The translations under genes were made by a program, and so were the position numbers. Under the pieces are notes generated by a model that was not told where the DNA came from, made no database searches, and was given only the letters and a program-made list of their open reading frames with translations. DNA of 64,000 nt from an uncultured Acetobacteraceae bacterium. Lineage in GTDB: Bacteria > Pseudomonadota > Alphaproteobacteria > CACIAM-22H2. Where the stretch lies: positions 8,681 to 72,680 of the forward strand of contig CAYSUY010000001.1 of the NCBI GenBank assembly GCA_964434345.1, in the 5' to 3' direction. This document shows, piece by piece, positions 42,784-56,648 of this stretch (positions are counted from its first letter, which is position 1; the number at the start of each line of letters is the position of its first letter).

Positions 42784-43825
42784 TCGCCGCGAACGGGGTC
42801 GCAACCGGGATCGCCGGAGGCCGGTCGAGCCAGGCTGGCACGGGAAGACCGCGCGCGCGCAGGAACCCCGGATCGAACAGCTTCGAGGCGTAGCGCGCGC
42901 CGCCATCGCAGAGGATGGTCACGATAGTGTGGCCGGGGCCGAGTGCGCGCGCCAGCGCCATCGCGCCCGCGACGTTGATGCCGGAGGATGCTCCGACGAA
43001 CAGCCCCTCCTCGGCGAGGAGATCGAAGACGATGCGCACGGCCTCGTCGTCCGCGATCCGGAAGGAATGATCGACGCGGAGCCCTTCCAGGTTGCGCGTG
43101 ATGCGGCCCTGACCGATGCCCTCGGTGATCGACGACCCCTCGGATTTCAGGACGCCGGTCGTGTAGTAGCTGTGCAGCGCCGCGCCATGCGGATCGGCAA
43201 GCGCGATCTTCACGCCGGGCTTCAGGCGCCGGAGCCCGATCGCGGTGCCCGCGAGGGTGCCGCCGGATCCGACCGCGCACACGAAGCCATCCACCTTGCC
43301 GCCGGTCTGCCGGAAGATCTCCGGCGCGGTGGTCAGGACATGCGCCTCGCGATTGGCGACGTTGTCGAACTGGTTGGCCCAGAGCGCGCCGGCAGGATCG
43401 ACTTGTCCTATGGCCTCGGCGAGACGCTGCGACACCTTCACGTAGTTGTCCGGATTGGCGAAGGGGACCGCCGGCACGAGCCGCAATTCGGCGCCGATAA
43501 GGCGGAGGAAGTCCTTCTTTTCCTGGCTCTGCGTGTCGGGCATCACGATGACGCTGCGATAGCCGCGTGCATTGGCGACCAGGGCAAGGCCGATTCCCGT
43601 GTTCCCGGCCGTTCCCTCGACGATGACGCCACCGGGCTTGAGAAGGCCCTTTGCCTCTGCGTCCAGGACCATCTGCAGGGCAGGGCGGTCCTTCACCGAG
43701 CCGCCGGGGTTGAGGAACTCGGCCTTGCCGAGGATCTCGCAGCCGGTCTGCGCGCTGGCCCGGCGCAGACGGATCAGGGGCGTGTTGCCGATGGTGCCGG
43801 CGAAGCCATCACGGATCTCGGTCAC
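42773..43825 (-). CDS. cysteine synthase / cystathionine beta-synthase-family PLP enzyme
   Basis: GNTPLIRL, NPGGSVKDR (PLP Lys), GTAGNTGIGLA, AVGSGGTLAG. 350 aa. The 3' end overlaps the convergent kinase gene by 11 nt. Confidence 0.85.
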   Translation of the reverse strand: MTEIRDGFAGTIGNTPLIRLRRASAQTGCEILGKAEFLNPGGSVKDRPALQMVLDAEAKGLLKPGGVIVEGTAGNTGIGLALVANARGYRSVIVMPDTQSQEKKDFLRLIGAELRLVPAVPFANPDNYVKVSQRLAEAIGQVDPAGALWANQFDNVANREAHVLTTAPEIFRQTGGKVDGFVCAVGSGGTLAGTAIGLRRLKPGVKIALADPHGAALHSYYTTGVLKSEGSSITEGIGQGRITRNLEGLRVDHSFRIADDEAVRIVFDLLAEEGLFVGASSGINVAGAMALARALGPGHTIVTILCDGGARYASKLFDPGFLRARGLPVPAWLDRPPAIPVATPFAAITS

Positions 43826-43866
43826 TGACGTTGCTCCTCATGCATCGACGGCGGCTGACAGGGGCG

Positions 43867-44529
43867 TCAGCCCGCCCGGGCATAGCCGAGGCTGACGAGG
43901 CCGATGGCGCGCATGACGGCGGCCTGGGCCGGGTCGACGACCGGAAGGCCAAGGCGGCGCTCGATCTCGGGTCGATAGCCGCCCATGCTGGCGCAGCCGA
44001 GGATCAGCACGTCGGCGCCGTCGCGGTCGCGCAGCTCGGTTCCGACCTCGACGATGCGATCGATCACCCTTGGGCCGTCGAGCAACGCGGTAACGCCGAT
44101 CTCGAGGGGCCGGTCGCCCGCGAGCAGGCTTTCGAGCCCCAACTGGCGAACCGCCCGGATATGGCGCGGGATCGAGCCGCGCTTGATCGCCACGATCCCG
44201 AATTTCCGTCCGAGGCCGATCGCGGCGAGATAGGCGGATTCCCCGATCCCGACCACCGGCTGGCGGACGCGCTCGCGCGCGAGGTGGAGCCCCGGGTCGG
44301 AGAAGCAGCCGATGACATAGGCGTCGGCCGGATGGCTCTCGAAATAGCGCGCGGTCGGCAGGACGACGCTTTCCACATGCTCCTGGGTCTCGATACCGGG
44401 CGGCCCCTCGGCCAGGGTGGCGCAGACCACCTCGGGGCCACCGGGCAGGCGTGTCGGCGCGAGCGCCGCATCCATGGAGGCCGTGACGCTTGCCGAACTG
44501 TTGGGGTTGAGGACCAGGATACGCGACAT
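43867..44529 (-). CDS. Asp/Glu/hydantoin racemase family protein
   Basis: 220 aa. ILVLNPNSS, with two catalytic-type cysteines in IGCFSDPG and LGCASMG. Confidence 0.8.
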   Translation of the reverse strand: MSRILVLNPNSSASVTASMDAALAPTRLPGGPEVVCATLAEGPPGIETQEHVESVVLPTARYFESHPADAYVIGCFSDPGLHLARERVRQPVVGIGESAYLAAIGLGRKFGIVAIKRGSIPRHIRAVRQLGLESLLAGDRPLEIGVTALLDGPRVIDRIVEVGTELRDRDGADVLILGCASMGGYRPEIERRLGLPVVDPAQAAVMRAIGLVSLGYARAG

Positions 44530-44662: not shown

Positions 44663-45511
44663 ATGGATCGGCAGCGTCTTCGGATCGGACAGGCCAGGCT
44701 GACGCGGCGGCGCGCGCTCGCAAGTGCGCTCGCGGGAGCGTTCGCGCCCGCCGCGGCCGCGCAGGTCACAGACCTCCGTGGCTTCGATCCCCTGTGGCGT
44801 GACGCCGAAGCCGCCATCCGCGCCTTCTTCGGCCCCGTGCAGTTCCAGCGCACGGGCATCGCGCTCGACCTGCCCGAGCAGACCGACAGCGGCAGTACGG
44901 TGCCCCTGACGCTGCGGATCGACGCGGCGATGACCGAGGCCGACCATCCCGACGTGGTCCATGTCCTCGCGCACGGCAATCCGACCCCGCACGTGTTCTC
45001 GGCGTGGTTCAGCCCGGCCAATGGTCGCGCCGAACTCTCGACCCGCATTCGGCTCGAGCGGACCCAGGCGGTCACCGCGGTCGTGCGGATGAGCGACGGC
45101 CGGCATCTGCGGGTGGACCGGGAGGTCGGCGTGAGTTTCGGCGCCTGCGCCCAGATCGGCGAAGGATCGAACGACGATGTGATCGCATTCGCGCCGCGCA
45201 CGCGCGTCAGCGTCCCGGCCCGCGCCGGCCGGGACGAAATCGTCCCCGTGCGCACGCTGATCTCGCATCCGATGGAAACCGGGTTGCGGCTGAACGCCGC
45301 CGACGAGTGGATCCGCCAGCGGATCGTGTCGCGCTTCCGCTGTGCGTTCGCCGGTCGCCCGCTGTTCCGGGCCCGGCTCTACCCCGCCGTGGCGAGCAAC
45401 CCGTATTTCCATTTCCATGCCCGGGTCAGGGAAAGCGGGGTCTTCGACTTCGACTGGTACGACACGCTGGACATGACCTTCGCCGACCGCGCCGCCATCG
45501 AGGTCGGATAG
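44663..45511 (+). CDS. fused SoxY-like/SoxZ-like thiol carrier protein, copy 1, twin-arginine signal
   Basis: Start at MDRQRL..LTRRRALASALAGAFAPAAAAQ (44663). SoxY-like half: DLPEQTDSGSTVPL..., ending in the VSFGACAQ cysteine motif. SoxZ-like half: VRTLISHPMETGLRLNA...NPYFHFH. Confidence 0.7.
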   Translation: MDRQRLRIGQARLTRRRALASALAGAFAPAAAAQVTDLRGFDPLWRDAEAAIRAFFGPVQFQRTGIALDLPEQTDSGSTVPLTLRIDAAMTEADHPDVVHVLAHGNPTPHVFSAWFSPANGRAELSTRIRLERTQAVTAVVRMSDGRHLRVDREVGVSFGACAQIGEGSNDDVIAFAPRTRVSVPARAGRDEIVPVRTLISHPMETGLRLNAADEWIRQRIVSRFRCAFAGRPLFRARLYPAVASNPYFHFHARVRESGVFDFDWYDTLDMTFADRAAIEVG

Positions 45512-45640: not shown

Positions 45641-46102
45641 ATGAACCTGACGCTCAGCGTCAACGGCAAATCGCACCAGGTCGATGTCGAGCCCGAAACG
45701 CCTCTGTTGTGGGTGCTCCGCGACACGATCGGATTGACGGGCACGAAATATGGCTGCGGCATCGCGCAGTGCGGCGCCTGCATGGTCCATATCGACGGGC
45801 AGGCGGTGAAGTCCTGCAACGTCAACGCCGCCGCCGCCGTCGGCAAGCGCATCACGACGATCGAGGGCCTGTCGCCGGACAGCAGCCATCCGGTCCAGAA
45901 GGCCTGGCTGGAGCATACGGTGCCGCAATGCGGCTATTGCCAGTCGGGACAGATCATGTCGGCCGCCGCGCTCCTGCAGCGCACGCCGAATCCGACCGAC
46001 CGCCAGATCGACGACGCGATGTCGGAAAATCTCTGCCGCTGCGGCACCTATCTGCAGATCCGCGAGGCGATCCACGCCGCCGCGAAGCTCGGCCGGTCGT
46101 GA
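45641..46102 (+). CDS. (2Fe-2S)-binding small subunit of a xanthine-oxidase-family Mo hydroxylase (IorA / aldehyde oxidoreductase small subunit type), copy 1
   Basis: The ATG at 45641 follows [28 protein letters not shown] and [21 protein letters not shown] cluster motifs. 153 aa. Confidence 0.9.
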
Positions 46103-46113
46103 GGGAGGCGCGC

Positions 46114-48291
46114 ATGGACAAGATCGATCTTTCCCGTCGGGCCTTCATCCGCACGGCGGTGGCCGCCGGCGGCGGCATGATGCTGGGCTTCAACATTCCG
46201 GCCACGCATGACGCCGCGGCCGCGACGGTCCAGCCTGAGTTGTGGAAGCCGCCGGCTGGCGGCGTCGAGGTCAACGCCTGGCTGACCATCGATGCGGAGG
46301 GCGTGGTCACGATCCGGGTCCCGCATACCGAGATGGGGCAGGGTGGCATGACGTCCGTCGCGCAACTCGTCGCGGAGGAACTCGACGTTCCCTGGGAGAA
46401 GGTCCGCGCGGTGCTTGCCGACGCGAACCGCCACGTGACGCGCGGCAACGAATACAAGGACATGTCGACGGGCGGCTCGAACCTCGTGCGCAACCGTCAT
46501 CCGCACATCATGCAGGCCGGCGCCTCCGCGCGCGAGCGACTGCGCGAGGCGGCGGCGCGCAAATGGGGCGTCGATCGCGCCCAGGTGACGGCGAAGCAGG
46601 GCGTCCTGACGGCCGGTGCCAATCGCGGCACCTATGGCGAGTTCGCGACCGCCGCCGCCCAGATCGCTTTGCCGCAGGAGCCCAAGATCAAGGCCTATGG
46701 CGACTGGTGGCTGCTCGGCAAGGATGTGCCGCGCATGGATGTCGCGCCGAAGGTCAACGGCAGCGCGATCTATCCGATCGACGTGCGCGTGCCGGGCATG
46801 GTCTATGCCGCCGTGCGCGCCTGTCCGGTTCCCGGCGGCAGGCTCAAGAGCTTCGATTTCGCCGCGGTCAAGGCGCGTCCGGGCGTGATCGCCGCGATCG
46901 AGCTCAAGCAGACCAAGGCCAATCTCGGCAACAGCGACATGCGCAGCGCCGTCGCCGTGGTCGCGGACAGCTTCTACCGCGCCAAGGTCGCCCTCGATCT
47001 GATGCCGATCGAATGGGATCTCGGTCCCGGCGCGCAGAACAGCTACGCGGCGATGGACGCGCAGGCCCGCGACCTGATGGACAAGGAGGCCAAGCACGCC
47101 GAGGAGGTCCGCGGCGATCCGCGGCCGCTGCTCGCGTCGCCGGCCGGGAAGGTCGTGACGGGAAGCTATGCGCGCCCCTACGAGACCCACGCGCCGATGA
47201 GCCCGCCGGCCGCGGTGGCGCATGTCACGGCCGAGCGCGTCGATGTCTGGAGCTTCACGCAGAACGTCGCCGCGACGCTGCTTCTGGCCGCCGATCAGGC
47301 CGGACGCAACCCCAAGGATGTCTTCGTCCACGGGACGTTCCAGGGCGGTGCGTTCGGACAGGGCAACGCCGTCGACATCACCCGCCAGGCGGTCGAACTC
47401 TCGAAGCAGCTCGGCAAGCCGGTCAAGGTGATCTGGACGCGCGAGGAGGACACCGCCCAGGCCCGCTCTCGCCCGCCCATCTGGGCGCGGTTCCAGGCCG
47501 TGCTCGGCGCGGACGGCCTGCCGACGGCGATGCTCAGCCGCGCAGTCGGCGAGACCTTCAACCCGGCCTATGCCGATCGCGGGATCGCGAACATGCCCTA
47601 CAACGTGCCGCATTTCCGGTACGAGCGGCATGTCGTGCCGACCAACATTCCGGTCGGTCCGAACCGCGCGCCGGGCAACAACGCCAACGGCTTCACGATC
47701 GAGCAGTACGTCGACGAGCTGGCGCTCGCCGGCGGCTGGGATCCGCTGGAGTGGCGCATCAAGATGACCGAGGGCAACGAGCGCTGGCAGCGGGTGCTGC
47801 TCAAGCTCAAGGAAGTCTCGGGCTTCACCACCAAGCTGCCGCGCGGCCAGGGAATGGGCATCGCGGTGGTCGAATCCCACGGCTCGACCGTGGGTGTCTG
47901 CGCGACCGTCGAGGTCACGCGGCGCGGCCAGCTCTCGGTCGAGAAGATCCTCGTCGTCACCAACAGTGGCTACGTGATCAATCCACGCGCCGCGAACGAA
48001 CAGGTCTATGGCTGTGTCGCGTGGGAGCTGAGCCATACGCTCCAGGGCGGTCTCGATCTGCGCGAGGGCCGTTTCCGCAACACCAATTTCGACGGCTACA
48101 AGCTCACGCGCATGGCCGACATGCCGCCGGTCGAAAGCGTCTACGCGATGTCGCAGGACGGCTGGTGGGGCGGCTTCGGCGAAACGGCCGGGCCGCCGAC
48201 GCCGCCGGCGATCGCCAACGCGATCTTCTTCGCGACCGGCAAGCGTATCCGCTCGACACCGATCCTCCAGCACAATCTCAGCTGGGCCTGA
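46114..48291 (+). CDS. molybdopterin-binding large subunit of a xanthine-oxidase-family hydroxylase (IorB-type), Tat signal, copy 1
   Basis: The ATG at 46114 follows GAGGGAGG. N-terminus MDKIDLSRRAFIRTAVAAGGGMMLGF. 725 aa, alignable by eye to copy 2 (GASARERLR, VKVIWTREE). Confidence 0.9.
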   Translation: MDKIDLSRRAFIRTAVAAGGGMMLGFNIPATHDAAAATVQPELWKPPAGGVEVNAWLTIDAEGVVTIRVPHTEMGQGGMTSVAQLVAEELDVPWEKVRAVLADANRHVTRGNEYKDMSTGGSNLVRNRHPHIMQAGASARERLREAAARKWGVDRAQVTAKQGVLTAGANRGTYGEFATAAAQIALPQEPKIKAYGDWWLLGKDVPRMDVAPKVNGSAIYPIDVRVPGMVYAAVRACPVPGGRLKSFDFAAVKARPGVIAAIELKQTKANLGNSDMRSAVAVVADSFYRAKVALDLMPIEWDLGPGAQNSYAAMDAQARDLMDKEAKHAEEVRGDPRPLLASPAGKVVTGSYARPYETHAPMSPPAAVAHVTAERVDVWSFTQNVAATLLLAADQAGRNPKDVFVHGTFQGGAFGQGNAVDITRQAVELSKQLGKPVKVIWTREEDTAQARSRPPIWARFQAVLGADGLPTAMLSRAVGETFNPAYADRGIANMPYNVPHFRYERHVVPTNIPVGPNRAPGNNANGFTIEQYVDELALAGGWDPLEWRIKMTEGNERWQRVLLKLKEVSGFTTKLPRGQGMGIAVVESHGSTVGVCATVEVTRRGQLSVEKILVVTNSGYVINPRAANEQVYGCVAWELSHTLQGGLDLREGRFRNTNFDGYKLTRMADMPPVESVYAMSQDGWWGGFGETAGPPTPPAIANAIFFATGKRIRSTPILQHNLSWA

Positions 48292-48300
48292 CGTCGTCTC

Positions 48301-48335
48301 GCCACGACCGGCGCGTTCCGCGCGCCGGTCGTGGC
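48301..48335 (+). other. intercistronic GC stem-loop between the Mo subunit and the SoxXA-fusion gene
   Basis: GCCACGACCGGCGCG-ttccg-CGCGCCGGTCGTGGC, a 15-bp perfect stem starting 10 nt after the stop at 48291. No U-tract follows. Confidence 0.45.
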
Positions 48336-48373
48336 CTCCTCCCGCCGCGCCGCCGCACGCCTTGTTCCGCCGC

Positions 48374-49525
48374 ATGATCCGTGTGCTGCTGGTCGTGCTT
48401 TTCTGCTTGAGCGCAGCCGGCCCGGTCCGCGCCGGGAACGCCGAACTCGAACCGCTGACCGCGATGCCCGGCGATCCGGTGCGCGGCCGCGCGATCGTGC
48501 GCGATCCGGGCAAGGCGAGTTGCCTGATCTGCCATGCGATGCCGATCCCCGAGGAGCCCGACCATGGCGGGATCGGTCCACCGCTCGCCGGAATCGGCAA
48601 GCGGACGACACCGGGCGAACTGCGCCGTCGCCTCGTCGATCCGACCGTCCGCGAGCCGGAGACCGTGATGCCCGCCTATCATCGCGTCGACGGTCTCAAT
48701 CGGGTCCTGGAGCGCTATCGGGGACAGCCGATCTACAGCGCGCAGGAGGTCGAGGATGTCGTCGCCTATCTCGCGACGCTGGTGGACGACGCGCCGCTTC
48801 CGGCACCGCCGCCCGTGGGGCCGGAGACCGGCGCGGCGCGGTCCGGCACCTTCTATCTGGGCGATGCCACGCGGCGTCTTCAGGACGATGATTTCCTCAA
48901 TCCCGGCATGTTCGCGGTCGAGCGCGGGGGCGAGGTCTTCCGTCGCGCCGACGGCGAGGGCGGAGTGTCCTGCGCCTCGTGCCATGACGAAGCGGCGATG
49001 CGGGGAGTGGCGACGCGCTACCCGCGCTTCGACGGCGCGCGCGGCGGCCTGATCGACCTGCCCGCCGCCCTCGACGCGATGCGGCGCACGAAGATGCGCG
49101 CGTCCCCGTTGGGCCGGGAGAGCGAGGACATGCTGGCGCTGTCGGCGTTCATCGCGCGCCAGTCCAACGGCCTTTTCAGGTCGGTTCCGGTCGATGGTCC
49201 GGTGCGGCCCCATTTCGAGGCCGGTCGCGCGTTCTTCGAGACCCGCCGTGGTCAACTGAACCTGTCCTGCGCGCACTGCCATGACGCGCTCGCTGGCGCG
49301 AAGCTGCGCGGCGACACGATCAGCCAGGGGCAGATCGACGGTTTTCCGATCCATCGCCTCATGTGGCGTTCCATGGCCTCCACGCACCGCATGTTCGCCT
49401 GGTGCAACAGCGCCCTGCGCGCCGAACCGTTCGAGAGCGGAAGTCCGGAGTATCTGGCACTCGAACTCTACCTGGCCTGGCGCGGGCGTGCGCTGCCGAT
49501 CGCGGTTCCCGGCGTGCGGCGTTGA
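48374..49525 (+). CDS. SoxX-SoxA fusion c-type cytochrome (three CxxCH), Sec signal
   Basis: Start at ATG 48374 (alternative TTG 48362). SoxX-like half: CLICH, MPAYH, EDVVAYLATL. SoxA-like half: NPGMF, CASCH, LSCAHCH, QGQIDGFPIHRLMW, HRMFAWCN..LRAEPF, LELYLAWRG. Confidence 0.75.
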   Translation: MIRVLLVVLFCLSAAGPVRAGNAELEPLTAMPGDPVRGRAIVRDPGKASCLICHAMPIPEEPDHGGIGPPLAGIGKRTTPGELRRRLVDPTVREPETVMPAYHRVDGLNRVLERYRGQPIYSAQEVEDVVAYLATLVDDAPLPAPPPVGPETGAARSGTFYLGDATRRLQDDDFLNPGMFAVERGGEVFRRADGEGGVSCASCHDEAAMRGVATRYPRFDGARGGLIDLPAALDAMRRTKMRASPLGRESEDMLALSAFIARQSNGLFRSVPVDGPVRPHFEAGRAFFETRRGQLNLSCAHCHDALAGAKLRGDTISQGQIDGFPIHRLMWRSMASTHRMFAWCNSALRAEPFESGSPEYLALELYLAWRGRALPIAVPGVRR

Positions 49526-49635: not shown

Positions 49636-50931
49636 ATGATTCTTCGGCTTCTCATCGGCCTGGTGGCCGCTCTTGCCGTGGGCGTCGGCGGATTTTTCGG
49701 ATGGGCGGCGCGTCACGGATCGATCGCTCCACTCGCCGCTCCGCCGGCTCCGAAGTCGTTCGACGCGGCGCTCGTCGAGCGGGGCAAGAGCCTCGCGGCG
49801 CTCGGCTATTGCGTCGTCTGCCATACGCGGTCCGACGGACCGGCGCTGGCCGGCGGGCGGGGGCTGCCGACACCATTCGGAACGGTCTACGCCACCAACA
49901 TCACCCCCGATCCCGAGACGGGGATCGGGCTCTGGTCCGAGGCGGCGTTCCGTCGCGCGATGCACGACGGCATCGGCCGCGACGGCCGGCATCTCTATCC
50001 GGTCTTTCCCTATGATCATTTCACGAAGGTCACCGACGAGGACGTGCGGGCGATCTACGCCTATCTCATGACGCAGAAGCCCGTGCGCTATACGCCGCCC
50101 GCCAACGAACTCGGCTTTCCGTTCGGTGTCCGTCAGTTGATGGCCGGTTGGAATCTCCTGTTTTTCGAGAGCGGCCGCTTCGTCCCTGATCCGAAGCGCG
50201 ACGAGGCCTGGAACCGCGGCGCCTATCTTGCCGAGGGCCTCGGCCATTGCGGATCCTGCCACACGCCGCGCAACGCCCTGGGCGGTCTCATCAAGGACCG
50301 GAAATTCGCCGGCGCGACGATCGAGGGCTGGCATGGCACGGCGCTCGACGCCTCGTCGCCGTCACCGATCCCATGGACCGCCGACGCGCTGCTCAACTAC
50401 CTCCTCGACGGGCGCGAGGCGCAGCATGGCATCGCGGCGGGACCGATGACGCCGGTCGTCGATCTGCTTGCCGACCAGGAGGAAAGCGATATCGCCGCGC
50501 TGGCAGCCTATATCCTGTCGTTCCAGACCGGGCGGCCGGACAACTCCGCCGACGCGAAGGCCTTCGCGGAGTCGCGCCAACTCGTCAATACGCCCGGCGC
50601 GGCCGTACCCGACATGGATCCCGCGCTGCGGCCCGGCTATGCGATCTTCATGCAGTCCTGCGCGAACTGCCATCGCAAGGGCGAACGCTTCACGCCGCTC
50701 GCGCTGACCTCGACCGTGAACGGGCCCGATCCCCGGAACGTCATCCAGATCGTGCAGCACGGCCTGCGGCCGCCCCGCGCGTCGCGTGGCTTCACCATGC
50801 CGGCCTTCGGGTGGATGTCGGACAAGGAGATGGCCGACCTCGTGCGCTTCCTGCGCGCGCAGTTCAGCCGCAATGCGCCATGGTCCGATGTCGAGGGCGC
50901 GATCCGCGAGGTACGCAGCCAGCGCCACTGA
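49636..50931 (+). CDS. membrane-anchored tri-haem cytochrome c (dehydrogenase cytochrome subunit type)
   Basis: Start at ATG 49636 (ORF opens at TTG 49627). N-terminal TM MILRLLIGLVAALAVGVGGFFGW. Three CxxCH motifs (CVVCH, CGSCH, CANCH). Confidence 0.85.
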   Translation: MILRLLIGLVAALAVGVGGFFGWAARHGSIAPLAAPPAPKSFDAALVERGKSLAALGYCVVCHTRSDGPALAGGRGLPTPFGTVYATNITPDPETGIGLWSEAAFRRAMHDGIGRDGRHLYPVFPYDHFTKVTDEDVRAIYAYLMTQKPVRYTPPANELGFPFGVRQLMAGWNLLFFESGRFVPDPKRDEAWNRGAYLAEGLGHCGSCHTPRNALGGLIKDRKFAGATIEGWHGTALDASSPSPIPWTADALLNYLLDGREAQHGIAAGPMTPVVDLLADQEESDIAALAAYILSFQTGRPDNSADAKAFAESRQLVNTPGAAVPDMDPALRPGYAIFMQSCANCHRKGERFTPLALTSTVNGPDPRNVIQIVQHGLRPPRASRGFTMPAFGWMSDKEMADLVRFLRAQFSRNAPWSDVEGAIREVRSQRH

Positions 50932-50946: not shown

Positions 50947-51627
50947 TCACATCCGCGGCACCGCGCGGCGGCATTGCGCGAGGCGCAGCGCGCTGCGTTG
51001 GGTCGTGCACGAGGTATTGCTCTCGTCCGACATCAGCGCCACGTCGGCGCGCTCGAACAATTCGGTGGCCCTGGCCAGATCCTGCGCCACGCCCGTGCCG
51101 TTCGCGTACATCGTGCCGAGACGGAACAGCGCCTGCGGATGGTCCTGCGCCGCCGCCCGCGTGAACCACCGCGCCGCAGCGGCTGCATCGGGTCGTAACC
51201 CGTCGCGGCCTTCGGCGAGGAGCGTGCCGAGGTCGAACTGGGCGAGCATGTCGCCCGCCTCGGCCGCTGCCCTGTACCAGTCGGCCGCTGCCGCTGCATC
51301 GCGCTCCACACCGTCGCCCTCGGCGAGCATCTGGGCGAGGTTGAACGCCGCGCGTGCATAGCCTTGCGCAGCCGCGAGCCGGTAGAATCGCGCTGCGGCG
51401 CCGCGATCGCGCGTCACGCCCCGCCCCTGGTCGAGCAGGATGGCGGCGTTGAACTGGGCGACGATGTCCCCGCGCTCGGCCCGCTCCCGCCAGACCGCGA
51501 AGGCGGCTGCATGATCGCCGCGCCGATACGCGTCTTCGGCCGCATCGGACGCGCTGGCGCCGGTCGCGGCGAGGGCCGCGAAGAGAAGGCCCGCAAAGAG
51601 CCGTGACTGGAGACGTCGTGCCCGCAT
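50947..51627 (-). CDS. Sel1-like (TPR-type) repeat protein with signal peptide
   Basis: Start at MRARRLQSRLFAGLLFAALAATGASA (51627). Repeated ~36-aa units: A.FN.A.ML..G.GV.RD...A..WYR.AAE.G. Confidence 0.7.
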   Translation of the reverse strand: MRARRLQSRLFAGLLFAALAATGASASDAAEDAYRRGDHAAAFAVWRERAERGDIVAQFNAAILLDQGRGVTRDRGAAARFYRLAAAQGYARAAFNLAQMLAEGDGVERDAAAAADWYRAAAEAGDMLAQFDLGTLLAEGRDGLRPDAAAAARWFTRAAAQDHPQALFRLGTMYANGTGVAQDLARATELFERADVALMSDESNTSCTTQRSALRLAQCRRAVPRM

Positions 51628-51659: not shown

Positions 51660-52475
51660 TCAGGCGAGGGCGATGGCCGCGCTGTTGGTGTAGACGGAGC
51701 CGTCGGTGTCGAGCCAGCGGAACTCGTAGATCCCGCCGCCACGCACCCGGTCGTGGAATGCAAAATATGGGTTGGTCGCGATCGCCGGGTAGGGCCGCGC
51801 GCGGAAGACCGTTCGGCCCTCGAAGCGGCACTCGAACTCCTCGATGATGCGCAGCGGGATCCAGGTATTGAAGGCATTGAGGCGCAAGCCCGTTTCCATC
51901 GGATGCGAGATCAGCGTGCGTATCGCGATGACATCGCCGAGGCGCGCGGTCGACGGAACCATCACCCGCGAAACCGGCTTGAAATCCCTGATCTCGGCGT
52001 CGGATCCGGTGCCAACATTGGCGCAGGCGCCGTAATTGACGGTCAGCGCCTGATCCGCGCGCCAGACCTCGCCGTTCTGCATCTGGGCGACCGCAGTGAC
52101 CGTCTGGGCGCTTTCCAGACGGATGCGGGTCGAGAACTCCGCACGCCCGCAATCCGGCGCGAACCATGCCGACACGACATTGGGCCTCGGGTTGCCGTCC
52201 ACCATGACATGGACGGCGCGTGGCACCTCGTCTTGGGCCGTGACCGTCATCGGGACTGAACTGCCGGTATCGGAATGGGAGGGCAGGTCGAGGCGGACGC
52301 GCCCGCTGCGCGCCGTGGCGGGTCCGACCAGGCGCTGGATCGCGTACTCGACGTCGCGCGGCAGGGCGATGCCCGCGCGCGCGCCGAAAAGCGCGAGCGC
52401 CGCTCCGCCCAGCGCTGCTCCGCTCAGCGCCGCGCGTCGTCCCCGGCCGTGTCGCGCTCCCGCCGTCATCGACAT
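51660..52475 (-). CDS. fused SoxY-like/SoxZ-like thiol carrier protein, copy 2, twin-arginine signal
   Basis: Start at MSMTAGARHGRGRRAALSGAALGG (52475). Alignable to copy 1, sharing the identical RTLISHPMETGLRLNA, STRIRLE and NPYF.FH. Cysteine motif VNYGACAN. Confidence 0.7.
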   Translation of the reverse strand: MSMTAGARHGRGRRAALSGAALGGAALALFGARAGIALPRDVEYAIQRLVGPATARSGRVRLDLPSHSDTGSSVPMTVTAQDEVPRAVHVMVDGNPRPNVVSAWFAPDCGRAEFSTRIRLESAQTVTAVAQMQNGEVWRADQALTVNYGACANVGTGSDAEIRDFKPVSRVMVPSTARLGDVIAIRTLISHPMETGLRLNAFNTWIPLRIIEEFECRFEGRTVFRARPYPAIATNPYFAFHDRVRGGGIYEFRWLDTDGSVYTNSAAIALA

Positions 52476-52521
52476 GCGCGTAGGCAGGACGGCCGGTTCG
52501 TGGCCGTCCCGCCGATCGCGC

Positions 52522-54834
52522 TCAGCCCATGTACTTCGTGAAGGGCTTGCGGGTGATCCATTTGCCGGTGGCCCGGAAATAGGCATGCACGAAGGCCGGC
52601 GGCGGCGGACCCATCGGCGGTTCACCCGCCTCCGAGAACCGCTCATGGCCGGAATTGCCGCCGAAATGGACGTGGATCTCCTGCGGCAGCAACGGATCGG
52701 CCTGCCGCATCGCGCGGTAGCCGTCGAGATTGCCTTCGACGATCGCGCCGTTCGAGACGTTGAGTTCCTCGTGCAGCGACGAACTCAGCGCCATGATCAC
52801 GCCGCCCTCCATCTGCGCGCGAACCGCATCCGGATTGATGACGCTGCCGAGGTCGAAGGCGACATCGACGCGCGGGATCGCCACGTTGCCGCGACGCGAC
52901 ACCTCGACCGTCACGATCGTCGCCACGGTCGAACCGCTGAACGGCACCGGCGCGCCGTCCTGGGTCGTCGCCATCGCCCAGTTGCCGATGGCGACGCCCT
53001 GCGCCGTGCCACGCGGAAGGCTCTGGCCCCAGTTCGCCTTCTGCGCGACCTCGTCGAGCGTCTTGATCCAGCCCTTGTCGGGGAAATTCGCCAGGAGCCG
53101 GCGGCGGTACTCGACCGCGTCGATCTTGGCGGTTTCCGCGCAGTTGTTGATGAAGGTCTCCAGGAAGAAGCAATTGCTCACGAACACCGGGCCACGGAAC
53201 GGACCGGTCATGATGTTGGTGGCGAAAGGTTTCGTGCGCCCCCGGAAATTCGGGATCGCGAACTGGTACGGCGTATCCGTCAGGTTGCGTCCGATGGGGC
53301 GCGACGCCGCCTGGTTGATGTCGACCGCCTTCGGCATGCCGTCGTCGCCGAGCGTCGCCGTGATCTTCGCGGCGGCGATGTCGCGATAGCGGCCCTGACG
53401 CGTCGTCTCCTCACGCGTCCAGATCACCTTGACCGGCTTGCCGGCCATCTTCTTCGCGATCGCGACTACCGTGCGGACGTCGTCGCCGTAGATACGGCGA
53501 CCGCAACCGACCCCGACATACGTCGCATGGACATGCACCTTCTCGGGATGCAGGCCCGTTTCGTCGGCTGCGACGTACATCGCCTGCTGCGCGTGCTGGG
53601 TGGAGATCCAGACGTCGCAGCGATCGGCGGTCACGAGCGCCGTGCCGTTGAGCGGCTCCATCAGGAAATGGTCCTGATAGGGAGTCATGAACTCCATCTC
53701 GACGCGCCGTCCCGTCTTGAGCGCCTCGTCGACATCGCCCTTGGCACGCAGGACGTTGCCGCGGCTGGTGTCCTTTGCCGCGTCGCCCAGCGCGGCGTAG
53801 ATCGACTGGGTCGTCGTCCATTTGGCCCCGTCGCCGGCGTCCCAGTCCACGGGCAGCATGTCCAGCGCGACCTTGGCCTGCCAGAAATGATCGGCGATCA
53901 CCGCCACGGCAGCCTGCGGACCGTTGGTGGTCGCCGACATGCCCATCGGCGCGGTGACGCGGTCGGGAAGGCCGCGCCCGCCCTCGGCGGGATCGACCAC
54001 CACGACTGCGCGAACGCCCGGCATCGCCTTGATCGCATCGAAATTGACGCTCTTCAGCTTGCCGCCATGGGCGGGTACGTGACGCACCGTCGCGTACACC
54101 ATGCCCGGCACCTGGACGTCGAGCCCGTAGATCGCGCTGCCGTCGAGGATGTGCTGGAGGTTGATGCGCTTGCGCGACGTCTTGCCGAGGAATGTCCACT
54201 CGGCGCGCGGCTTGAGGTCGGGCTCCTTGTCGAGTTTCACCGCGGCGGCCTCGGCGGCCACCTCGCCATAGGTGAGCCGGCGGTTGCTCGCGGCGTGGAC
54301 GAGGGTGCTGTTCTCGGCCTTCACCTGATCGACGGGAACGCCCCAGCGCGTGGCCGCCGCGACGCGCAGACGCTCGCGGGCGCTGGCGCCGATCTGGAGC
54401 AGTTGCTCCATCATCTCCTTGCCGGTCGAACGGCCCGAGAAATAGGCGAGGCCACCGGTCTTCGAGTAGAGATTGTTCTCCCTGAGGTTCCGGTTCGGCG
54501 GCATGTACTCGCCGCGCACGAGGTTCCAGTCGCAACCGAGTTCCTCGGTGACGATCATCGCCATGCCGGTGTGAACGCCGTTGCCCAACTCGCTCTTGAC
54601 GGTGCGGATGGTCACGGTGTTGTCCGGAGCGATCGAGACGACGCCGGTGAATTCGGCGCCCGTGCTCTGCTGGCCCGGATTGCGCGAGCCCAGCGCTGCG
54701 GCGGCCTGTTCGGCGGGCAGGATCCCGACCGTCAGTCCACCGGCCATGGCGGCGGCGCTGACCAGGAAAGTGCGGCGCCCGAGTTCGACGGTCGATCCGA
54801 CGGAGGGAGCGAAATCGGTCTGATGCTTTGTCAT
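52522..54834 (-). CDS. molybdopterin-binding large subunit of a xanthine-oxidase-family hydroxylase (IorB-type), Tat signal, copy 2
   Basis: Start at MTKHQTDF..LGRRTFLVSAAAMAGG (54834). 770 aa, occupying the 3' part of track ORF 52522..55230. Confidence 0.9.
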   Translation of the reverse strand: MTKHQTDFAPSVGSTVELGRRTFLVSAAAMAGGLTVGILPAEQAAAALGSRNPGQQSTGAEFTGVVSIAPDNTVTIRTVKSELGNGVHTGMAMIVTEELGCDWNLVRGEYMPPNRNLRENNLYSKTGGLAYFSGRSTGKEMMEQLLQIGASARERLRVAAATRWGVPVDQVKAENSTLVHAASNRRLTYGEVAAEAAAVKLDKEPDLKPRAEWTFLGKTSRKRINLQHILDGSAIYGLDVQVPGMVYATVRHVPAHGGKLKSVNFDAIKAMPGVRAVVVVDPAEGGRGLPDRVTAPMGMSATTNGPQAAVAVIADHFWQAKVALDMLPVDWDAGDGAKWTTTQSIYAALGDAAKDTSRGNVLRAKGDVDEALKTGRRVEMEFMTPYQDHFLMEPLNGTALVTADRCDVWISTQHAQQAMYVAADETGLHPEKVHVHATYVGVGCGRRIYGDDVRTVVAIAKKMAGKPVKVIWTREETTRQGRYRDIAAAKITATLGDDGMPKAVDINQAASRPIGRNLTDTPYQFAIPNFRGRTKPFATNIMTGPFRGPVFVSNCFFLETFINNCAETAKIDAVEYRRRLLANFPDKGWIKTLDEVAQKANWGQSLPRGTAQGVAIGNWAMATTQDGAPVPFSGSTVATIVTVEVSRRGNVAIPRVDVAFDLGSVINPDAVRAQMEGGVIMALSSSLHEELNVSNGAIVEGNLDGYRAMRQADPLLPQEIHVHFGGNSGHERFSEAGEPPMGPPPPAFVHAYFRATGKWITRKPFTKYMG

Positions 54835-54845
54835 CGCGACCTCCC

Positions 54846-55298
54846 TCAGACGAGTTCCGCGGCGCGGCGGACCGCGGCGCGGATCTTCAGGTAGGTGCCG
54901 CAGCGGCACAGATTGTTCATCGCTTGGTCGATATCGGCGTCCGACGGCTTGGAGTTGCGGGCGAGCAGGCCGACAGCGGCCATGATCTGACCCGACTGGC
55001 AGAAGCCGCATTGCGGGACGTCGAGTTCTGCCCAGGCGCGCTGCACCGCATGCGTCCGGTCGGGAGACAGGCCCTCGATGGTGACGATCGACTTGCCGAC
55101 GGCCTGGGCCGCCGGGATGTTGCACGAGCGCGCGGCCTGACCGTCGATGGTGACGGTGCAGGCGCCGCATTGGTTGATGCCGCAGCCATATTTCGTGCCG
55201 GTCATCGCCAGATGGTCCCGGAGCACCCACAGCAGCGGCGTTTGCGGATCGGCGTCGACCGAAACGGTCTTGCCGTTCACCTTGAGATCGAATGCCAT
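54846..55298 (-). CDS. (2Fe-2S)-binding small subunit, copy 2
   Basis: 150 aa. [45 protein letters not shown] upstream. Confidence 0.9.
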
Positions 55299-55520: not shown

Positions 55521-56648
55521 TTACCCCAGCGTGAAGGCCTCGTGTACGGCCGACTGGACGGCGCCACCGAGCACCGCTCCGCCGCCGGCGACATAGACCC
55601 AGTCACCGATCGTCACCGCCGCGACGGCGTGCCGCGGCGTGATCATCGGCGCATGGCTCTGCCAGGCGTCGGTCGCCGGGTCATAGCTTTCCATCTGTCC
55701 AAAGACCTTGGCGTCGAGCGTCCTGCCGCGTTCGATGATTCCGCCCTCGCCGCCCATGCAGAAGAAGCGGCCGCGATACACGACCATGCCGTGGCCGGAG
55801 CGGGCGGTGGGCAGCGGCGCGCGCTCTTCCCATGTGTCCCTCTGGGGGAGGTAAACGTGATGGAGATCGGTGTTGTACTGGAAGGTGTTGAAGCGTCCGC
55901 CCACGACATGGACGAGACCCGCATGCGCCACGCAGCCGACATGGTCGCGCGCGCCGGGCAGCGGGCGGCGCAGTTCCCACGCGTCCGCGACGGGGTCATA
56001 GACCTCGTGCCAGCCGATGCTCGCGCGCTCCGGCGCCGGATCGGTGGCCCCGCCGATCAGATGCACCTTGCCGTCGAGGATCACGGCCGCCGCCGCGCCG
56101 CGCGGGCGCGGCAGCGGCGCGATCTCGCGCCAGCGATCCTCCTTGACCTCGTAGGCGAAGGCCTTGTCGTCGCAGCGCCGGTTCTGCTCGATGAAGCCCC
56201 CCATCGCGTAGACGCGCCCGGCATCCGCCGCGACCGCGACATGGTTGGCACCGCGCGGCAGCGGCGCGGCGTCGAGCCAGGCGTTCGCGACGGGGTCGTA
56301 GACCGTGTGATAGGCGCGGTTCACCCGGCCTTCGCCATAGCCGCCCACGACATGCATCCGTCCGTCCCAGACCGTGGCCCAGGCCATCTCGCTGCGCGGG
56401 ATCGGCATGTCGGCGCGGGACACCCATCGGCCCGCGGGTCCGGCGGGGGCCGGGCTTGCCGACACGCGCTGCGCCTCCTGCTCGGGCGTCAGGTGATGCG
56501 GCGCGCCACCCTGCATGAGGTTGTGGAAGCGATGCGGCGACGGCGCGGCCGGTCGCAGGGCGGGGCCGTGATTGGCGTGCTGGGCCCGCGCCAGGGACGG
56601 GGCCAGCAGCGTGGCGCCCGCGGCGCCGAGCAGGAAGCGGCGATTCAT
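55521..56648 (-). CDS. Kelch-repeat beta-propeller protein with Tat signal and His-rich N-terminal segment
   Basis: N-terminus MNRRFLLGAAGATLLAPSLARA, followed by 6 His within about 35 aa. Repeated motifs: GR.Y..GG... / Y DP..D.W. Confidence 0.8.
   Translation of the reverse strand: MNRRFLLGAAGATLLAPSLARAQHANHGPALRPAAPSPHRFHNLMQGGAPHHLTPEQEAQRVSASPAPAGPAGRWVSRADMPIPRSEMAWATVWDGRMHVVGGYGEGRVNRAYHTVYDPVANAWLDAAPLPRGANHVAVAADAGRVYAMGGFIEQNRRCDDKAFAYEVKEDRWREIAPLPRPRGAAAAVILDGKVHLIGGATDPAPERASIGWHEVYDPVADAWELRRPLPGARDHVGCVAHAGLVHVVGGRFNTFQYNTDLHHVYLPQRDTWEERAPLPTARSGHGMVVYRGRFFCMGGEGGIIERGRTLDAKVFGQMESYDPATDAWQSHAPMITPRHAVAAVTIGDWVYVAGGGAVLGGAVQSAVHEAFTLG

Follow-up and report, generated by a model that had tools for sequence, protein, structure and literature searches.

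At 48374-49525 of the window, the 64-kb stretch of DNA analysed here, an open reading frame specifies a trihaem cytochrome, exported to the periplasm, in which SoxX and SoxA are genuinely one chain. Such fusions are already known; what makes this one interesting is its gene context. Comparison with related loci strongly supports SoxXA as a component of a Sox-like module without SoxB or SoxCD at the locus. The module has as constant members SoxX and SoxA, an IorAB-type molybdenum (Mo) hydroxylase and a SoxY/SoxZ carrier whose arm is not of the GGCGG kind; its optional members are an FccAB/SoxEF-like flavocytochrome (FCSD) and a trihaem quinone-reducing cytochrome, both sets of assignments being strongly supported. 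It is equally well supported that in the window one SoxXA serves two Mo-enzyme/carrier pairs. The features of the locus are as follows.

44663..45511, + strand: fused SoxY-SoxZ carrier 1 (Pfam SoxY 1.3e-27, SoxZ 3.9e-21)
45641..46102, + strand: small [2Fe-2S] subunit (IorA-like) of Mo hydroxylase 1 (Pfam Fer2_2 3.2e-31, Fer2)
46114..48291, + strand: large molybdopterin subunit (IorB-like) of Mo hydroxylase 1 (Pfam MoCoBD_1, MoCoBD_2; twin-arginine leader SRRAFI)
48301..48335, + strand: intercistronic GC hairpin after iorB (arms 48301-48315 and 48321-48335; 15-bp stem, 5-nt loop, z = -2.8)
48374-49525, + strand: fused SoxX-SoxA open reading frame (ATG start, 383 aa)
48374..48784, + strand: signal peptide and SoxX domain of the fused protein (TIGR04485, 1h31_B, Foldseek)
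48785..48838, + strand: Pro-rich linker DDAPLPAPPPVGPETGAA of the fused protein (pLDDT and comparison with unfused L007, L008 and L016)
48839..49525, + strand: dihaem SoxA domain of the fused protein (TIGR04484; alignments to 2c1d_A and 1h31_A; motif comparison, 86 loci)
49636..50931, + strand: trihaem membrane-associated cytochrome c subunit (Pfam Cytochrom_C, CBB3; 8gy3_A)
50947..51627, - strand: secreted Sel1-repeat protein (Pfam Sel1 2.1e-29)
51660..52475, - strand: fused SoxY-SoxZ carrier 2 (Pfam SoxY 6.8e-23, SoxZ 2.2e-22; Cys loop VNYGACANVGTGSD)
52522..54834, - strand: large molybdopterin subunit of Mo hydroxylase 2 (Pfam MoCoBD_1, MoCoBD_2; IorB tree)
54846..55298, - strand: small [2Fe-2S] subunit of Mo hydroxylase 2 (Pfam Fer2_2 5.7e-28)

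The start codon of carrier 1 is uncertain, 44663 being the ATG of MDRQRL, and the start of small subunit 1 is taken from the gene call in the syntenic locus L001. An additional in-frame TTG lies upstream of the SoxXA start, at 48362. Leader sequences, read from the translations, place all parts of the module in the periplasm.

The fused SoxX-SoxA protein

Both halves of the protein pass the NCBIfam equivalog cut-offs, the SoxX half with 67.3 bits over aa 47-136 (TIGR04485, cut-off 61) and the SoxA half with 179.2 bits over aa 177-383 (TIGR04484, dihaem type, cut-off 110). The SoxA half also matches Pfam SoxA-TsdA_cyt-c (2.5e-27) and the crystallized proteins of Paracoccus (2c1d_A, 1.2e-47) and Rhodovulum (1h31_A, 1.5e-46), and the SoxX half matches 1h31_B (6e-19). 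With an AlphaFold2 model of the fused chain (pLDDT 76, falling below 50 at linker residues 142-154), the best Foldseek matches are 1h31_A and 2c1d_A for the SoxA half, and 1h31_B (TM 0.75, target-normalised) and 2oz1 for the SoxX half. The first-pass annotation had read SoxX and SoxA in one polypeptide, and these scores and matches confirm it. All of the motifs that it quoted are found in the translation: CLICH (aa 50-54), MPAYH (99-103), CASCH (200-204), CAHCH (299-303), RMFAWC (339-344) and LELYLAWRG.

The SoxX half contains a single CxxCH, which is CLICH, and a Met distal ligand, M99 within MPAYH, both invariant in 40 aligned fusions. In the SoxA half, CASCH, CAHCH and C344 all have counterparts in the aligned sequences of the crystal structures and are likewise invariant in the 40 fused homologues. 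C344 corresponds to Cys222 of Rhodovulum SoxA, the ligand of the catalytic haem, and alignment to 1h31 and 2c1d therefore bears out both the haem sites and the catalytic-haem Cys that had been proposed from the motifs. Compared with canonical SoxA, clear differences can be discerned at two positions. Where Rhodovulum SoxA has Cys114, the distal ligand of haem 1, the window protein has Met236, and here the earlier description of a SoxA-type half needs amending; the position is Cys in Binatia-type fusions and Met or Glu in the window clade. Haem 1 is missing from some characterised SoxA types, so Met at this position does not bar membership of the SoxA family. The second difference concerns a conserved Arg that precedes the catalytic Cys by four residues (R-F-x-G-C) and that we take to line the substrate pocket. 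It is replaced by Met340 in the window protein (H-R-M-F-A-W-C), and Met340 is invariant across the 40 fusions. In a motif comparison of 86 loci, the window type reads HRMF(A/V/E)WC and canonical SoxA reads HRRF.GC, with R-R-F-x-G-C in eight of eight SoxB-linked SoxA proteins.

How did the fusion come about? Relative to the unfused genes of L007, L008 and L016, the SoxA signal peptide is gone and the Pro-rich linker stands in place of the SoxX stop codon and the SoxA signal peptide: the fusion arose through loss of the soxX stop codon and of the soxA signal peptide. Among the best 120 protein clusters, about 83 are SoxX-SoxA fusions over their full length, and in our own sample each of the 14 fused genes whose context could be read is IorAB-linked. 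A sequencing or assembly frameshift joining two genes, which the first-pass annotation had named as a possible artefact, is refuted and has a negligible probability, because the identical 383-aa protein occurs in another assembly and further 383-aa relatives at 85-87% identity in others, the 40 aligned fusions among these many fused clusters share one continuous frame, and a frameshift would leave the SoxA signal peptide embedded where none is present. The fusion is real, and it has arisen several times within the Mo-linked module. It had been regarded as the unusual feature of the locus, a view that does not stand: the closest relatives of the SoxA half (L007, L008 and L016) are unfused, yet have the same gene context, and a fused sox(AX) is already known from SoxB-containing clusters with the gene order sox(AX)-Y-Z-B (PMC13500833). 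That protein is, like the window protein, a single SoxX/SoxA polypeptide, but unlike in the window SoxB is in its cluster. The fusion would simply fix a 1:1 pairing of SoxX and SoxA. It is reminiscent of the TsdBA fusion, the thiosulfate dehydrogenase of Marichromatium purpuratum (5LO9), in which a catalytic cytochrome of the SoxA/TsdA fold is fused to an electron-accepting cytochrome; however, the Foldseek match is weak (E 3e-4, TM 0.23, query-normalised), domain order and family differ, and TsdBA works without a carrier protein.

Sox-type genes beside IorAB-type Mo hydroxylases

The first-pass annotation had placed SoxXA between a Mo-hydroxylase subunit and a cytochrome c, in an operon with SoxYZ-like carriers, with a GC hairpin upstream and no SoxB or SoxCD nearby. 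This layout is upheld throughout, and the cytochrome proves to be trihaem. With canonical Roseibium seeds, tblastn found no SoxB, SoxC or SoxD match longer than 80 aa at E<=1e-3 across the whole 64-kb window. The hairpin arms are 15 nt long and 100% complementary; they are identical in L001, and in L007 the corresponding position is taken by a hairpin whose sequence differs. We rejected the hairpin as an intrinsic terminator because no T-run follows it and the terminator scan does not call it. On the far side of the cytochrome, the Sel1-repeat gene is kept beside the second carrier in window-type loci (L001, L003, L007 and L028-L030).

The survey covered 86 non-redundant loci encoding a related SoxA, with SoxB scored per locus rather than genome-wide. 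An IorAB/aldehyde-dehydrogenase-type Mo hydroxylase lies beside the sox genes in 57 of the 86, and in 53 of the 63 with at least 5 kb of upstream flank. SoxB occurs in eight loci, and no locus of the 86 has both IorB and SoxB. None of the 57 IorB-linked loci contains SoxB, SoxC or SoxD, the eight SoxB finds elsewhere serving as positive controls. The linked loci span many phyla. IorB lies a median of 135 nt from the closest sox gene, and on the same strand as that gene in 52 of 57. FCSD is present in 30 of the 57 and the trihaem cytochrome in 12. Pairwise distances of SoxA and IorB are correlated (Mantel r 0.61, reached in 0 of 999 permutations), a value in which shared species history is left in.

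Gene order is the same as in the window in a close relative at 85% identity. Distant fused relatives at 49-64% identity, in Binatia-type, alphaproteobacterial and other contigs, have the order IorA-IorB-SoxY-SoxZ-cytochrome c-FCSD-SoxXA, and in L061, L062 and L077 one SoxX/Y/Z/A set lies beside two or three tandem IorAB pairs. Directly upstream of IorAB in the Binatia-type loci is a copper amine oxidase. Amine oxidase and sulfatase genes are found nearby in some loci. Clustering of 6314 open reading frames from the 57 linked loci revealed no extra conserved partner, maturation factor or regulator, giving only generic ABC ATPases, short-chain dehydrogenases and antisense shadows of the core genes.

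The carriers of the module depart from canonical SoxY in their arm. SoxB-linked loci have VTIGGCGG, whereas IorB-linked loci have ..AC(L/I/V)(D/E).. or GAC, the internal GAC loop being the form found when SoxY and SoxZ are fused; GGCGG is limited to the SoxB loci and L068, a short contig that is SoxB-free over its available stretch. Carrier 1 of the window, which has a twin-arginine leader (TRRRALA), places its Cys in the internal loop VSFGACAQIGEGSN, a motif conserved in its relatives. Neither window carrier has the C-terminal GGCGG swinging arm; instead there are the internal loops ..FGACAQIGEGS.. and ..YGACANVGTGS... On TIGR04487, the model for the SoxY-related AACIE arm, the two fused carriers score 96 and 98.5 bits (cut-off 172), the Cys being kept in the G-A-C loop; on TIGR04557 they score 111.6 and 106.9 (cut-off 140), and on TIGR04488, the 'true SoxY' model, a window carrier scores 77.5 (cut-off 125). 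The unfused SoxY of L004 comes close to the TIGR04487 cut-off with 168.6 bits, and PGAP names the unfused Neorhizobium and Methylobacterium carriers SoxY-related AACIE arm protein. For Bradyrhizobium, a soxY2 locus was reportedly described by Masuda et al. in 2010. In Alsobacter, a rhodanese follows the fused SoxYZ.

By their sequence features (two predicted [2Fe-2S] clusters, MoCoBD domains with the catalytic Glu, a twin-arginine leader and a trihaem cytochrome), the neighbouring Mo genes are of the IorAB/membrane aldehyde dehydrogenase type. The nearest solved structure to IorB-like subunit 1 is the large subunit of the Gluconobacter membrane aldehyde dehydrogenase (8gy3_C, 1.2e-53), and the trihaem cytochrome matches the cytochrome c subunit of the same enzyme (8gy3_A, 4e-97) as well as its counterparts in the glucose, fructose and alcohol dehydrogenases; it is the likely route to quinone. 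The catalytic-type G694-E695 and W446-x-R448-E449-E450 (WTREE) are conserved in at least 95% of the 57 sox-linked IorB proteins. The window enzyme thus shares with 8GY3 and with IorAB, the isoquinoline 1-oxidoreductase, a small subunit with two [2Fe-2S] clusters, an exported molybdopterin subunit and a trihaem cytochrome c, but its large subunit is only distantly related to 8gy3_C, its operon is interleaved with SoxYZ and SoxXA genes, and it reaches no NCBIfam equivalog cut-off. JGI labels the IorB homologues 'isoquinoline 1-oxidoreductase beta subunit'. The IorB tree contains two separate lineages coupled to these sox sets, and the paralogous Mo hydroxylase 2 is kept alongside copy 1 in L001, L007 and L008. 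IorB relatives at 59-60% identity have no sox gene within 8 kb, and of three homologues examined at 59-67% identity two were sox-free over that distance, so that we rejected the idea that this IorB clade occurs only with sox genes. It is therefore the Sox-like set that depends on the Mo enzyme and not the reverse, and the Mo enzyme type needs no Sox partners as such.

With the canonical Sox systems of Paracoccus, Rhodovulum and Roseibium the window set shares homologous periplasmic SoxX, dihaem SoxA, SoxY and SoxZ, the catalytic-haem Cys and the carrier Cys, and SoxE/SoxF-like flavocytochrome genes are often present in both. It differs in having the IorAB-type Mo hydroxylase in place of SoxB/SoxCD in the cluster, and in fusing SoxY to SoxZ as well as SoxX to SoxA; the Mo-linked sets as a whole differ in the AC-x-D/E or internal GAC arm. 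A second comparison is with the SoxYZ carriers linked to PQQ dehydrogenases (PMC12997753; TIGR04557). There too a fused SoxY-SoxZ lies beside a non-Sox periplasmic dehydrogenase, with a rhodanese in some loci, but the partners are a PQQ alcohol dehydrogenase and a SoxH-like hydrolase, SoxXA is absent, and the window carriers fall below the family cut-off. In searchable full-text papers we found no link between Sox carriers and a xanthine-oxidase-family enzyme; a paper on SAR324 mentions Ior and an incomplete soxYZ-flavocytochrome set separately, unconnected.

Possible roles of the module

What might a SoxXA do without SoxB and SoxCD? The first-pass annotation suggested that it loads the adjacent carrier for the Mo enzyme rather than for a Sox cycle. 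The tie to the Mo enzyme gains strong support from synteny and carrier type (IorAB at 57 of 86 loci but at none of the eight SoxB-linked ones, and a distinct Cys arm), whereas the loading of the carrier stays a proposed step. The account that we prefer, with a little less than even confidence, is that SoxXA loads reduced sulfur on the carrier, the Mo enzyme oxidises the carried sulfur, and electrons pass to quinone through the trihaem cytochrome. SoxXA would oxidatively join a reduced sulfur species to the Cys of the fused SoxYZ. This species would probably be sulfide or polysulfide rather than thiosulfate, because the canonical SoxA Arg beside the catalytic Cys is Met here. The twin-arginine-exported Mo hydroxylase would then oxidise the carrier-bound sulfane sulfur in two-electron steps, with oxygen from water, standing in for SoxCD, and no SoxB would be needed to release the product, sulfite or sulfate. 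Both SoxXA and, by way of the two [2Fe-2S] clusters, Mo would pass electrons to quinone through the trihaem cytochrome; given the frequencies of FCSD and of this cytochrome among the linked loci, the electron route proposed for the window is not general. No xanthine-oxidase-family enzyme is known to oxidise sulfane sulfur, and the carrier Cys of the fused SoxYZ, being on an internal loop instead of a free C-terminal arm, may be limited in its reach into a deep Mo funnel. Extended beyond the window, the proposal becomes a widespread periplasmic sulfur oxidation without SoxB/SoxCD, in which a specialised SoxXA would load an AAC/GAC-arm SoxYZ paralogue, the Mo hydroxylase would oxidise the sulfur and electrons would go to quinone or cytochrome c; this wider claim is tentative and on the unlikely side.

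A serious rival, albeit one that we think rather improbable, is a persulfide relay: SoxXA, with FCSD where present, would load the carrier, and the carrier would restore the Mo=S ligand of a hydroxylase whose substrates are ordinary aldehydes or heterocycles. The one-sided dependence fits such a relay, Sox-like sets being nearly always beside IorAB and IorB relatives occurring also sox-free, as does the sharing of one Sox set among two or three IorAB pairs and of the window SoxXA between two. The rhodanese of Alsobacter points the same way, and the PQQ dehydrogenases, with their fused SoxYZ-like carrier, rhodanese-domain protein and SoxH-like hydrolase (PMC12997753; TIGR04557), offer a parallel. 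The copper amine oxidase upstream of IorAB in the Binatia-type loci yields aldehyde and H2O2, which is also consistent with maintenance of the ligand. However, for mere repair, SoxX and SoxA, frequently joined by a flavocytochrome, would make an oversized oxidative loading apparatus; neither the Gluconobacter aldehyde dehydrogenase nor PaoABC is known to need one. Each IorAB of the window, moreover, keeps a dedicated fused carrier, and both paralogous pairs are conserved in L001, L007 and L008, which looks more like a stoichiometric partnership.

Xanthine-oxidase-family chemistry is the hydroxylation of carbon centres, and the closest solved relative of the Mo enzyme is an aldehyde dehydrogenase. 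The carrier might therefore hold an organic substrate, either an organic thiol as a mixed disulfide formed by SoxXA or an aldehyde as a thiohemiacetal, whose tethered carbon the Mo hydroxylase would oxidise. The less cationic SoxA pocket (Arg to Met, Gly to Trp) and the amine oxidase and sulfatase genes near some loci would agree with this. Yet the FccAB/SoxEF-like sulfide dehydrogenase genes of 30 of the 57 loci point to inorganic sulfur, the unbiased clustering of open reading frames from those loci gave no conserved organic-catabolism neighbour, and Mo aldehyde oxidoreductases work without thiol adducts. We consider an organic substrate quite unlikely.

Less probable still is ordinary Sox thiosulfate oxidation, with SoxB encoded elsewhere and the Mo hydroxylase a mere neighbour that shares the cytochrome: both halves of SoxXA do pass the NCBI equivalog cut-offs, but the IorAB linkage extends across many phyla and two IorB lineages with no locus combining IorB and SoxB, the carrier arm is systematically unlike GGCGG and NCBI models a separate 'SoxY-related' family, the window type has Met for the active-site Arg, and the second soxY of Bradyrhizobium diazoefficiens, which may not be of the IorAB-linked kind, is dispensable for thiosulfate oxidation (PMC5748708).

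Consequences for the reading of sox genes

Surveys of genomes and metagenomes use Sox proteins as markers of thiosulfate oxidation. A large and phylogenetically broad subset of soxX, soxA, soxY and soxZ is tied to an IorAB-type Mo enzyme, with no SoxB at the loci, and automatic pipelines label most of this subset as ordinary sulfur-oxidation genes, PGAP separating some of the SoxY copies under the AACIE-arm name. What goes beyond the searchable papers is a widespread gene set that pairs Sox-type carriers with a periplasmic Mo enzyme, the fusion being already known.

If the Mo enzyme oxidises carrier-bound sulfur, the xanthine-oxidase family would gain a new reaction and the sulfur cycle a new branch. 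If instead the Sox-like proteins service the Mo enzyme, they would represent a new kind of cofactor maintenance, parallel to the SoxYZ-like 'relay' of PQQ dehydrogenases. The module has cultured carriers, among them Neorhizobium galegae VafX2, Roseomonas marmotae 1318, Methylobacterium sp. NMS14P, Bosea sp. Root381, Azospirillum sp., Filomicrobium insigne and Alsobacter ponti, so both ideas are directly testable. About 1000 soxA, soxX, soxY and soxZ paralogues outside sox clusters have been recorded and left unanalysed (PMC13500833). Were the SoxB/SoxCD-free route true, a function could be assigned to these 'orphan' paralogues, and sulfur cycling would have so far unrecognised participants among the heterotrophs of soil and fresh water (Binatia, Rokubacteria, Burkholderiales and Hyphomicrobiales).

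The SoxX-SoxA fusion

The open reading frame at 48374-49525 (+) runs uninterrupted through 383 codons, and an in-frame TTG at 48362, used as start, would lengthen SoxXA by four residues. The single reading frame with its leader, the two halves and every motif listed in the first-pass annotation were recovered in the translation. A Sec-type leader (MIRVLLVVLFCLSAAGPVRA) is followed by a SoxX part (residues 47-136, 67.3 bits against a cut-off of 61) and a SoxA part (residues 177-383, 179.2 bits against a cut-off of 110), both recognized by NCBI curated models, and Pfam detects a SoxA/TsdA cytochrome domain. PDB sequence searches match the C-terminal half to SoxA of Paracoccus pantotrophus (2c1d_A, 1.2e-47) and Rhodovulum sulfidophilum (1h31_A, 1.5e-46), and the N-terminal half to the SoxX chains of the same structures. 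An AlphaFold2 model built with 40 homologues as input (mean pLDDT 76) resolves two parts well, with low-confidence residues 142-154 between them; its best Foldseek matches are SoxA 1h31_A and 2c1d_A, and SoxX 1h31_B, 2oz1 and 2c1d_B.

Alignment to the characterized proteins, which the first-pass annotation had proposed, places C344 on Cys222 of Rhodovulum SoxA, the catalytic haem ligand. Met236 falls on Cys114, the haem 1 ligand, and Met340 on the arginine four residues ahead of the catalytic cysteine. Judged by its sequence, SoxXA is thus a SoxX plus SoxA family member with two departures in SoxA, the haem-1 ligand and the active-site arginine; from the first, a His/Met haem with a raised potential is predicted. 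At the haem-1 site (window 49073-49087, residues 234-238) Met is found in the window clade and Glu in proteins P0014 and P0016 and loci L020 and L024, while Cys is still present in the distant Binatia-type fusions.

Is the fusion real? The identical 383-residue protein is present in a large protein collection, with 383-residue relatives of 85-87% identity. Of the best 120 clusters, about 83 span both halves at 340-450 residues, annotated at source as 'SoxA' only. Forty fused homologues can be aligned over their whole length, and the three haem sites and RMF-x-WC are invariant among them. In the closest unfused relatives used for comparison (loci L007, L008 and L016) soxX stops right after ..VAYLxxL, and soxA, with its own signal peptide, begins a few bases later or overlaps by 4 nt. 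In the window the SoxA signal peptide is missing and an 18-residue Pro-rich linker connects the domains. A frameshift artefact, the danger foreseen in the first reading, is rejected, because it would have left a SoxA signal peptide embedded in the protein. In trees the fusion is placed at least three separate times (the window with L001; L003; the Binatia-type clade), and a fourth fused gene, L015, on a 1.7-kb contig, is placed elsewhere. The fusion therefore exists as claimed, but not as an unusual feature: fused sox(AX) in sox(AX)-Y-Z-B clusters is already listed in a 2026 survey (PMC13500833), and the fusion as such is ordinary and no discovery.

A conserved module with molybdenum hydroxylases

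The genes around SoxXA form two sets on opposite strands:

44663-45511, +, fused SoxY-SoxZ carrier 1
45641-46102, +, [2Fe-2S] subunit 1 (IorA)
46114-48291, +, molybdopterin subunit 1 (IorB), with twin-arginine leader
48301-48335, +, GC hairpin, 15 bp
48374-49525, +, fused SoxXA, between the hairpin and the trihaem cytochrome c
49636-50931, +, trihaem cytochrome c
50947-51627, -, Sel1-repeat protein
51660-52475, -, fused SoxY-SoxZ carrier 2
52522-54834, -, molybdopterin subunit 2
54846-55298, -, [2Fe-2S] subunit 2

The large Mo subunit is closest to that of the Gluconobacter membrane aldehyde dehydrogenase (8gy3_C, 1.2e-53), and the trihaem cytochrome is very close to the cytochrome subunit of the same enzyme (8gy3_A, 4e-97). 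The xanthine-oxidase family motifs, including the C-terminal Gly-Glu with the catalytic glutamate, are kept in 57 sox-linked homologues. SoxXA is a secreted trihaem fusion with the catalytic cysteine, and both carriers have a conserved cysteine; by their motifs and leaders, the two Mo hydroxylases look catalytically intact and destined for twin-arginine export, and the cytochrome is of the quinone-feeding type. Set 2 (51660-55298, -, with the Sel1 gene at 50947-51627) is a complete hydroxylase pair with its own fused SoxYZ, divergent from operon 1, and so one SoxXA appears to serve two enzyme-carrier pairs. SoxB, SoxC and SoxD seeds from the canonical Roseibium aggregatum cluster, verified with NCBIfam, have no match anywhere in the 64-kb window, in agreement with the absence noted at first reading.

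The hairpin reported upstream of SoxXA is real and lies directly 3' of the iorB stop codon, with no T-run and no terminator call in a scan. It is identical in L001 (9927-9961), and in L007 a hairpin of different sequence occupies the matching position (9431-9464). It is probably an intercistronic RNA element setting the relative expression of the flanking genes, and may act in RNA stability or attenuation between iorB and soxX(A).

Further out, a secreted Kelch-repeat beta-propeller protein (55521-56648, -) flanks the second IorA; the gene is intact in the window, whereas L001, the relative at 85% identity, has it broken into two ORFs (17694-18822). L001 also has a DDE transposase fragment between the cytochrome and Sel1 genes (12705-13052), which is missing from the window. 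Divergent PLP-dependent cysteine-synthase-like and Asp/Glu-racemase-family genes (42773-44529, -) precede the operon, as in L001; in L059 a PALP gene directly follows soxA.

Gene order is unchanged in the relative with 85% identity. Fused relatives at 49-64% identity from very different organisms have IorA-IorB-SoxY-SoxZ-cytochrome c-FCSD flavoprotein-SoxXA, and the unfused SoxA proteins closest to the window's SoxA half likewise adjoin IorAB, fused SoxYZ and the trihaem cytochrome. Scanning one genome per species gave more than 540 relatives, the best 80 of which were examined with 10-kb flanks by tblastn, using window and locus sequences as seeds. Among 86 non-redundant loci, 57 have IorB, 8 SoxB, none both, and 21, mostly short contigs, neither. 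Where at least 5 kb lies upstream (63 loci), the counts are 53, 4 and 6. The contextual tie to the Mo enzyme drawn in the first-pass annotation indicates a module that is real and conserved. IorB lies a median of 135 nt from the nearest sox gene, and the two have a common strand in 52 of the 57 loci. Two layouts recur: IorA-IorB-SoxY-SoxZ-(cytochrome c-FCSD)-SoxX/A, with soxX and soxA adjacent or fused, and IorA-IorB-SoxX-SoxY-SoxZ-SoxA. Unbiased clustering of all ORFs of linked loci found no additional conserved partner. As named in their records, carriers span Alpha-, Beta- and Gammaproteobacteria, Binatia, 'Deltaproteobacteria', Methylomirabilia, Rokubacteria, Bacteroidota and others, including the cultured Bosea sp. 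Root381, Filomicrobium insigne, Azospirillum sp. ST 5-10 and Alsobacter ponti. Replicons of Neorhizobium galegae, Roseomonas marmotae and Methylobacterium sp. NMS14P carry the module as well, under generic PGAP names, the carrier being a 'SoxY-related AACIE arm protein' in two. The linkage of the Sox-like set to IorAB is very strong, phylogenetically broad and exclusive of SoxB. In L061, L062, L077, L039 and L083 one soxX-Y-Z-A set has two or three IorA-IorB pairs in tandem ahead of it or on its flanks, so that several Mo enzymes share one carrier system.

Enzyme lineages and carrier types

Sox-linked IorB proteins form two deep lineages. The trihaem cytochrome always accompanies the first, to which both window copies belong, old paralogues kept as a pair in L001, L007 and L008; the second takes in the Binatia-type and X-Y-Z-A-type loci. 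Both lineages occur with window-type SoxA. SoxA distances correlate with IorB distances (Mantel r 0.61, 0 of 999 permutations as high), a figure that still contains shared species history. IorB1 homologues at 59-60% identity have no sox gene within 8 kb, and one at 67% identity has fused SoxYZ as the sole sox gene nearby; it is therefore the Sox-like set that needs the Mo enzyme and not the reverse. Neighbours of the sox-free homologues (L093, L094; P0239, P0223) are sulfatase, DUF6152 and TonB-receptor genes, which may represent a different, also uncharacterized IorAB context.

Carrier and SoxA features follow context. SoxY ends in VTIGGCGG in all SoxB-linked loci, and in V-T-x-(A/S/G)-(A/G)-C-(L/I/V)-(D/E)... 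in IorB-linked loci with unfused SoxY and SoxZ; IorB-linked fused carriers, the window's included, have an internal (S/N)(F/Y)GAC loop. The cysteine is retained throughout, and against the AACIE-arm model the carrier of L004 reaches 168.6 bits. The canonical SoxA motif is H-R-R-F-x-G-C, the window type H-R-M-F-(A/V/E)-W-C, and that of the X-Y-Z-A layout R-R-(L/I)-R-x-C. The arginine four residues ahead of the catalytic cysteine is reported in SoxAX structure papers to line the substrate pocket; its loss, with a tryptophan gained beside the cysteine, suggests a substrate other than sulfonate-bearing thiosulfate.

Possible roles of the Sox-like set

Tentatively, we favour a scheme in which SoxXA would put reduced sulfur onto the carrier and the Mo enzyme would oxidize it by successive hydroxylations, in place of SoxCD. 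The four-electron product, Cys-S-SO2-, could hydrolyse and free sulfite, and SoxB would then no longer be needed. Sulfite release by hydrolysis has been proposed for persulfide dioxygenases.

The main rival, which we consider rather unlikely, is that sulfur handed on by the carrier as persulfide maintains the Mo=S ligand in the periplasmic hydroxylase. The one-sided dependence of the Sox-like set on the Mo enzyme and the single Sox set common to several IorAB pairs speak for it, as do the rhodanese in Alsobacter, the parallel of the SoxYZ-like 'relay' beside PQQ dehydrogenases and the amine oxidase upstream of Binatia-type operons. In Alsobacter ponti the rhodanese-domain protein (L008, 2825-3736) is encoded after the fused SoxYZ that belongs to the second IorAB set, an arrangement reminiscent of the rhodanese paired with a SoxYZ-like carrier near PQQ dehydrogenases. 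The copper amine oxidase lies directly upstream of IorAB-SoxYZ-FCSD-SoxXA (L004, 2815-4764; equivalents in L010, L012-L014 and L026), preceded in Binatia-type loci by short-chain dehydrogenase and hydantoinase genes; its products, an aldehyde and H2O2, may be relevant to the substrate of the Mo enzyme or to damage to that enzyme. That the Mo enzyme oxidizes an organic substrate tethered to the carrier is improbable. By context and carrier type SoxXA stands outside the canonical Sox pathway. A conventional Sox function that relies on a SoxB encoded elsewhere is likewise improbable, slightly more so than the tethered organic substrate.

The known systems that come nearest are fused sox(AX) in SoxB-containing clusters, the three-subunit membrane aldehyde dehydrogenase, the PQQ-dehydrogenase-associated SoxYZ-like system and the TsdBA fusion. 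In none of these does a xanthine-oxidase-family enzyme occur together with SoxXA and SoxYZ. A full-text literature search found no description of this combination. The 2026 survey counts about 1000 unexplained soxA, soxX, soxY and soxZ paralogues outside sox clusters (PMC13500833), and many of these are plausibly this module.
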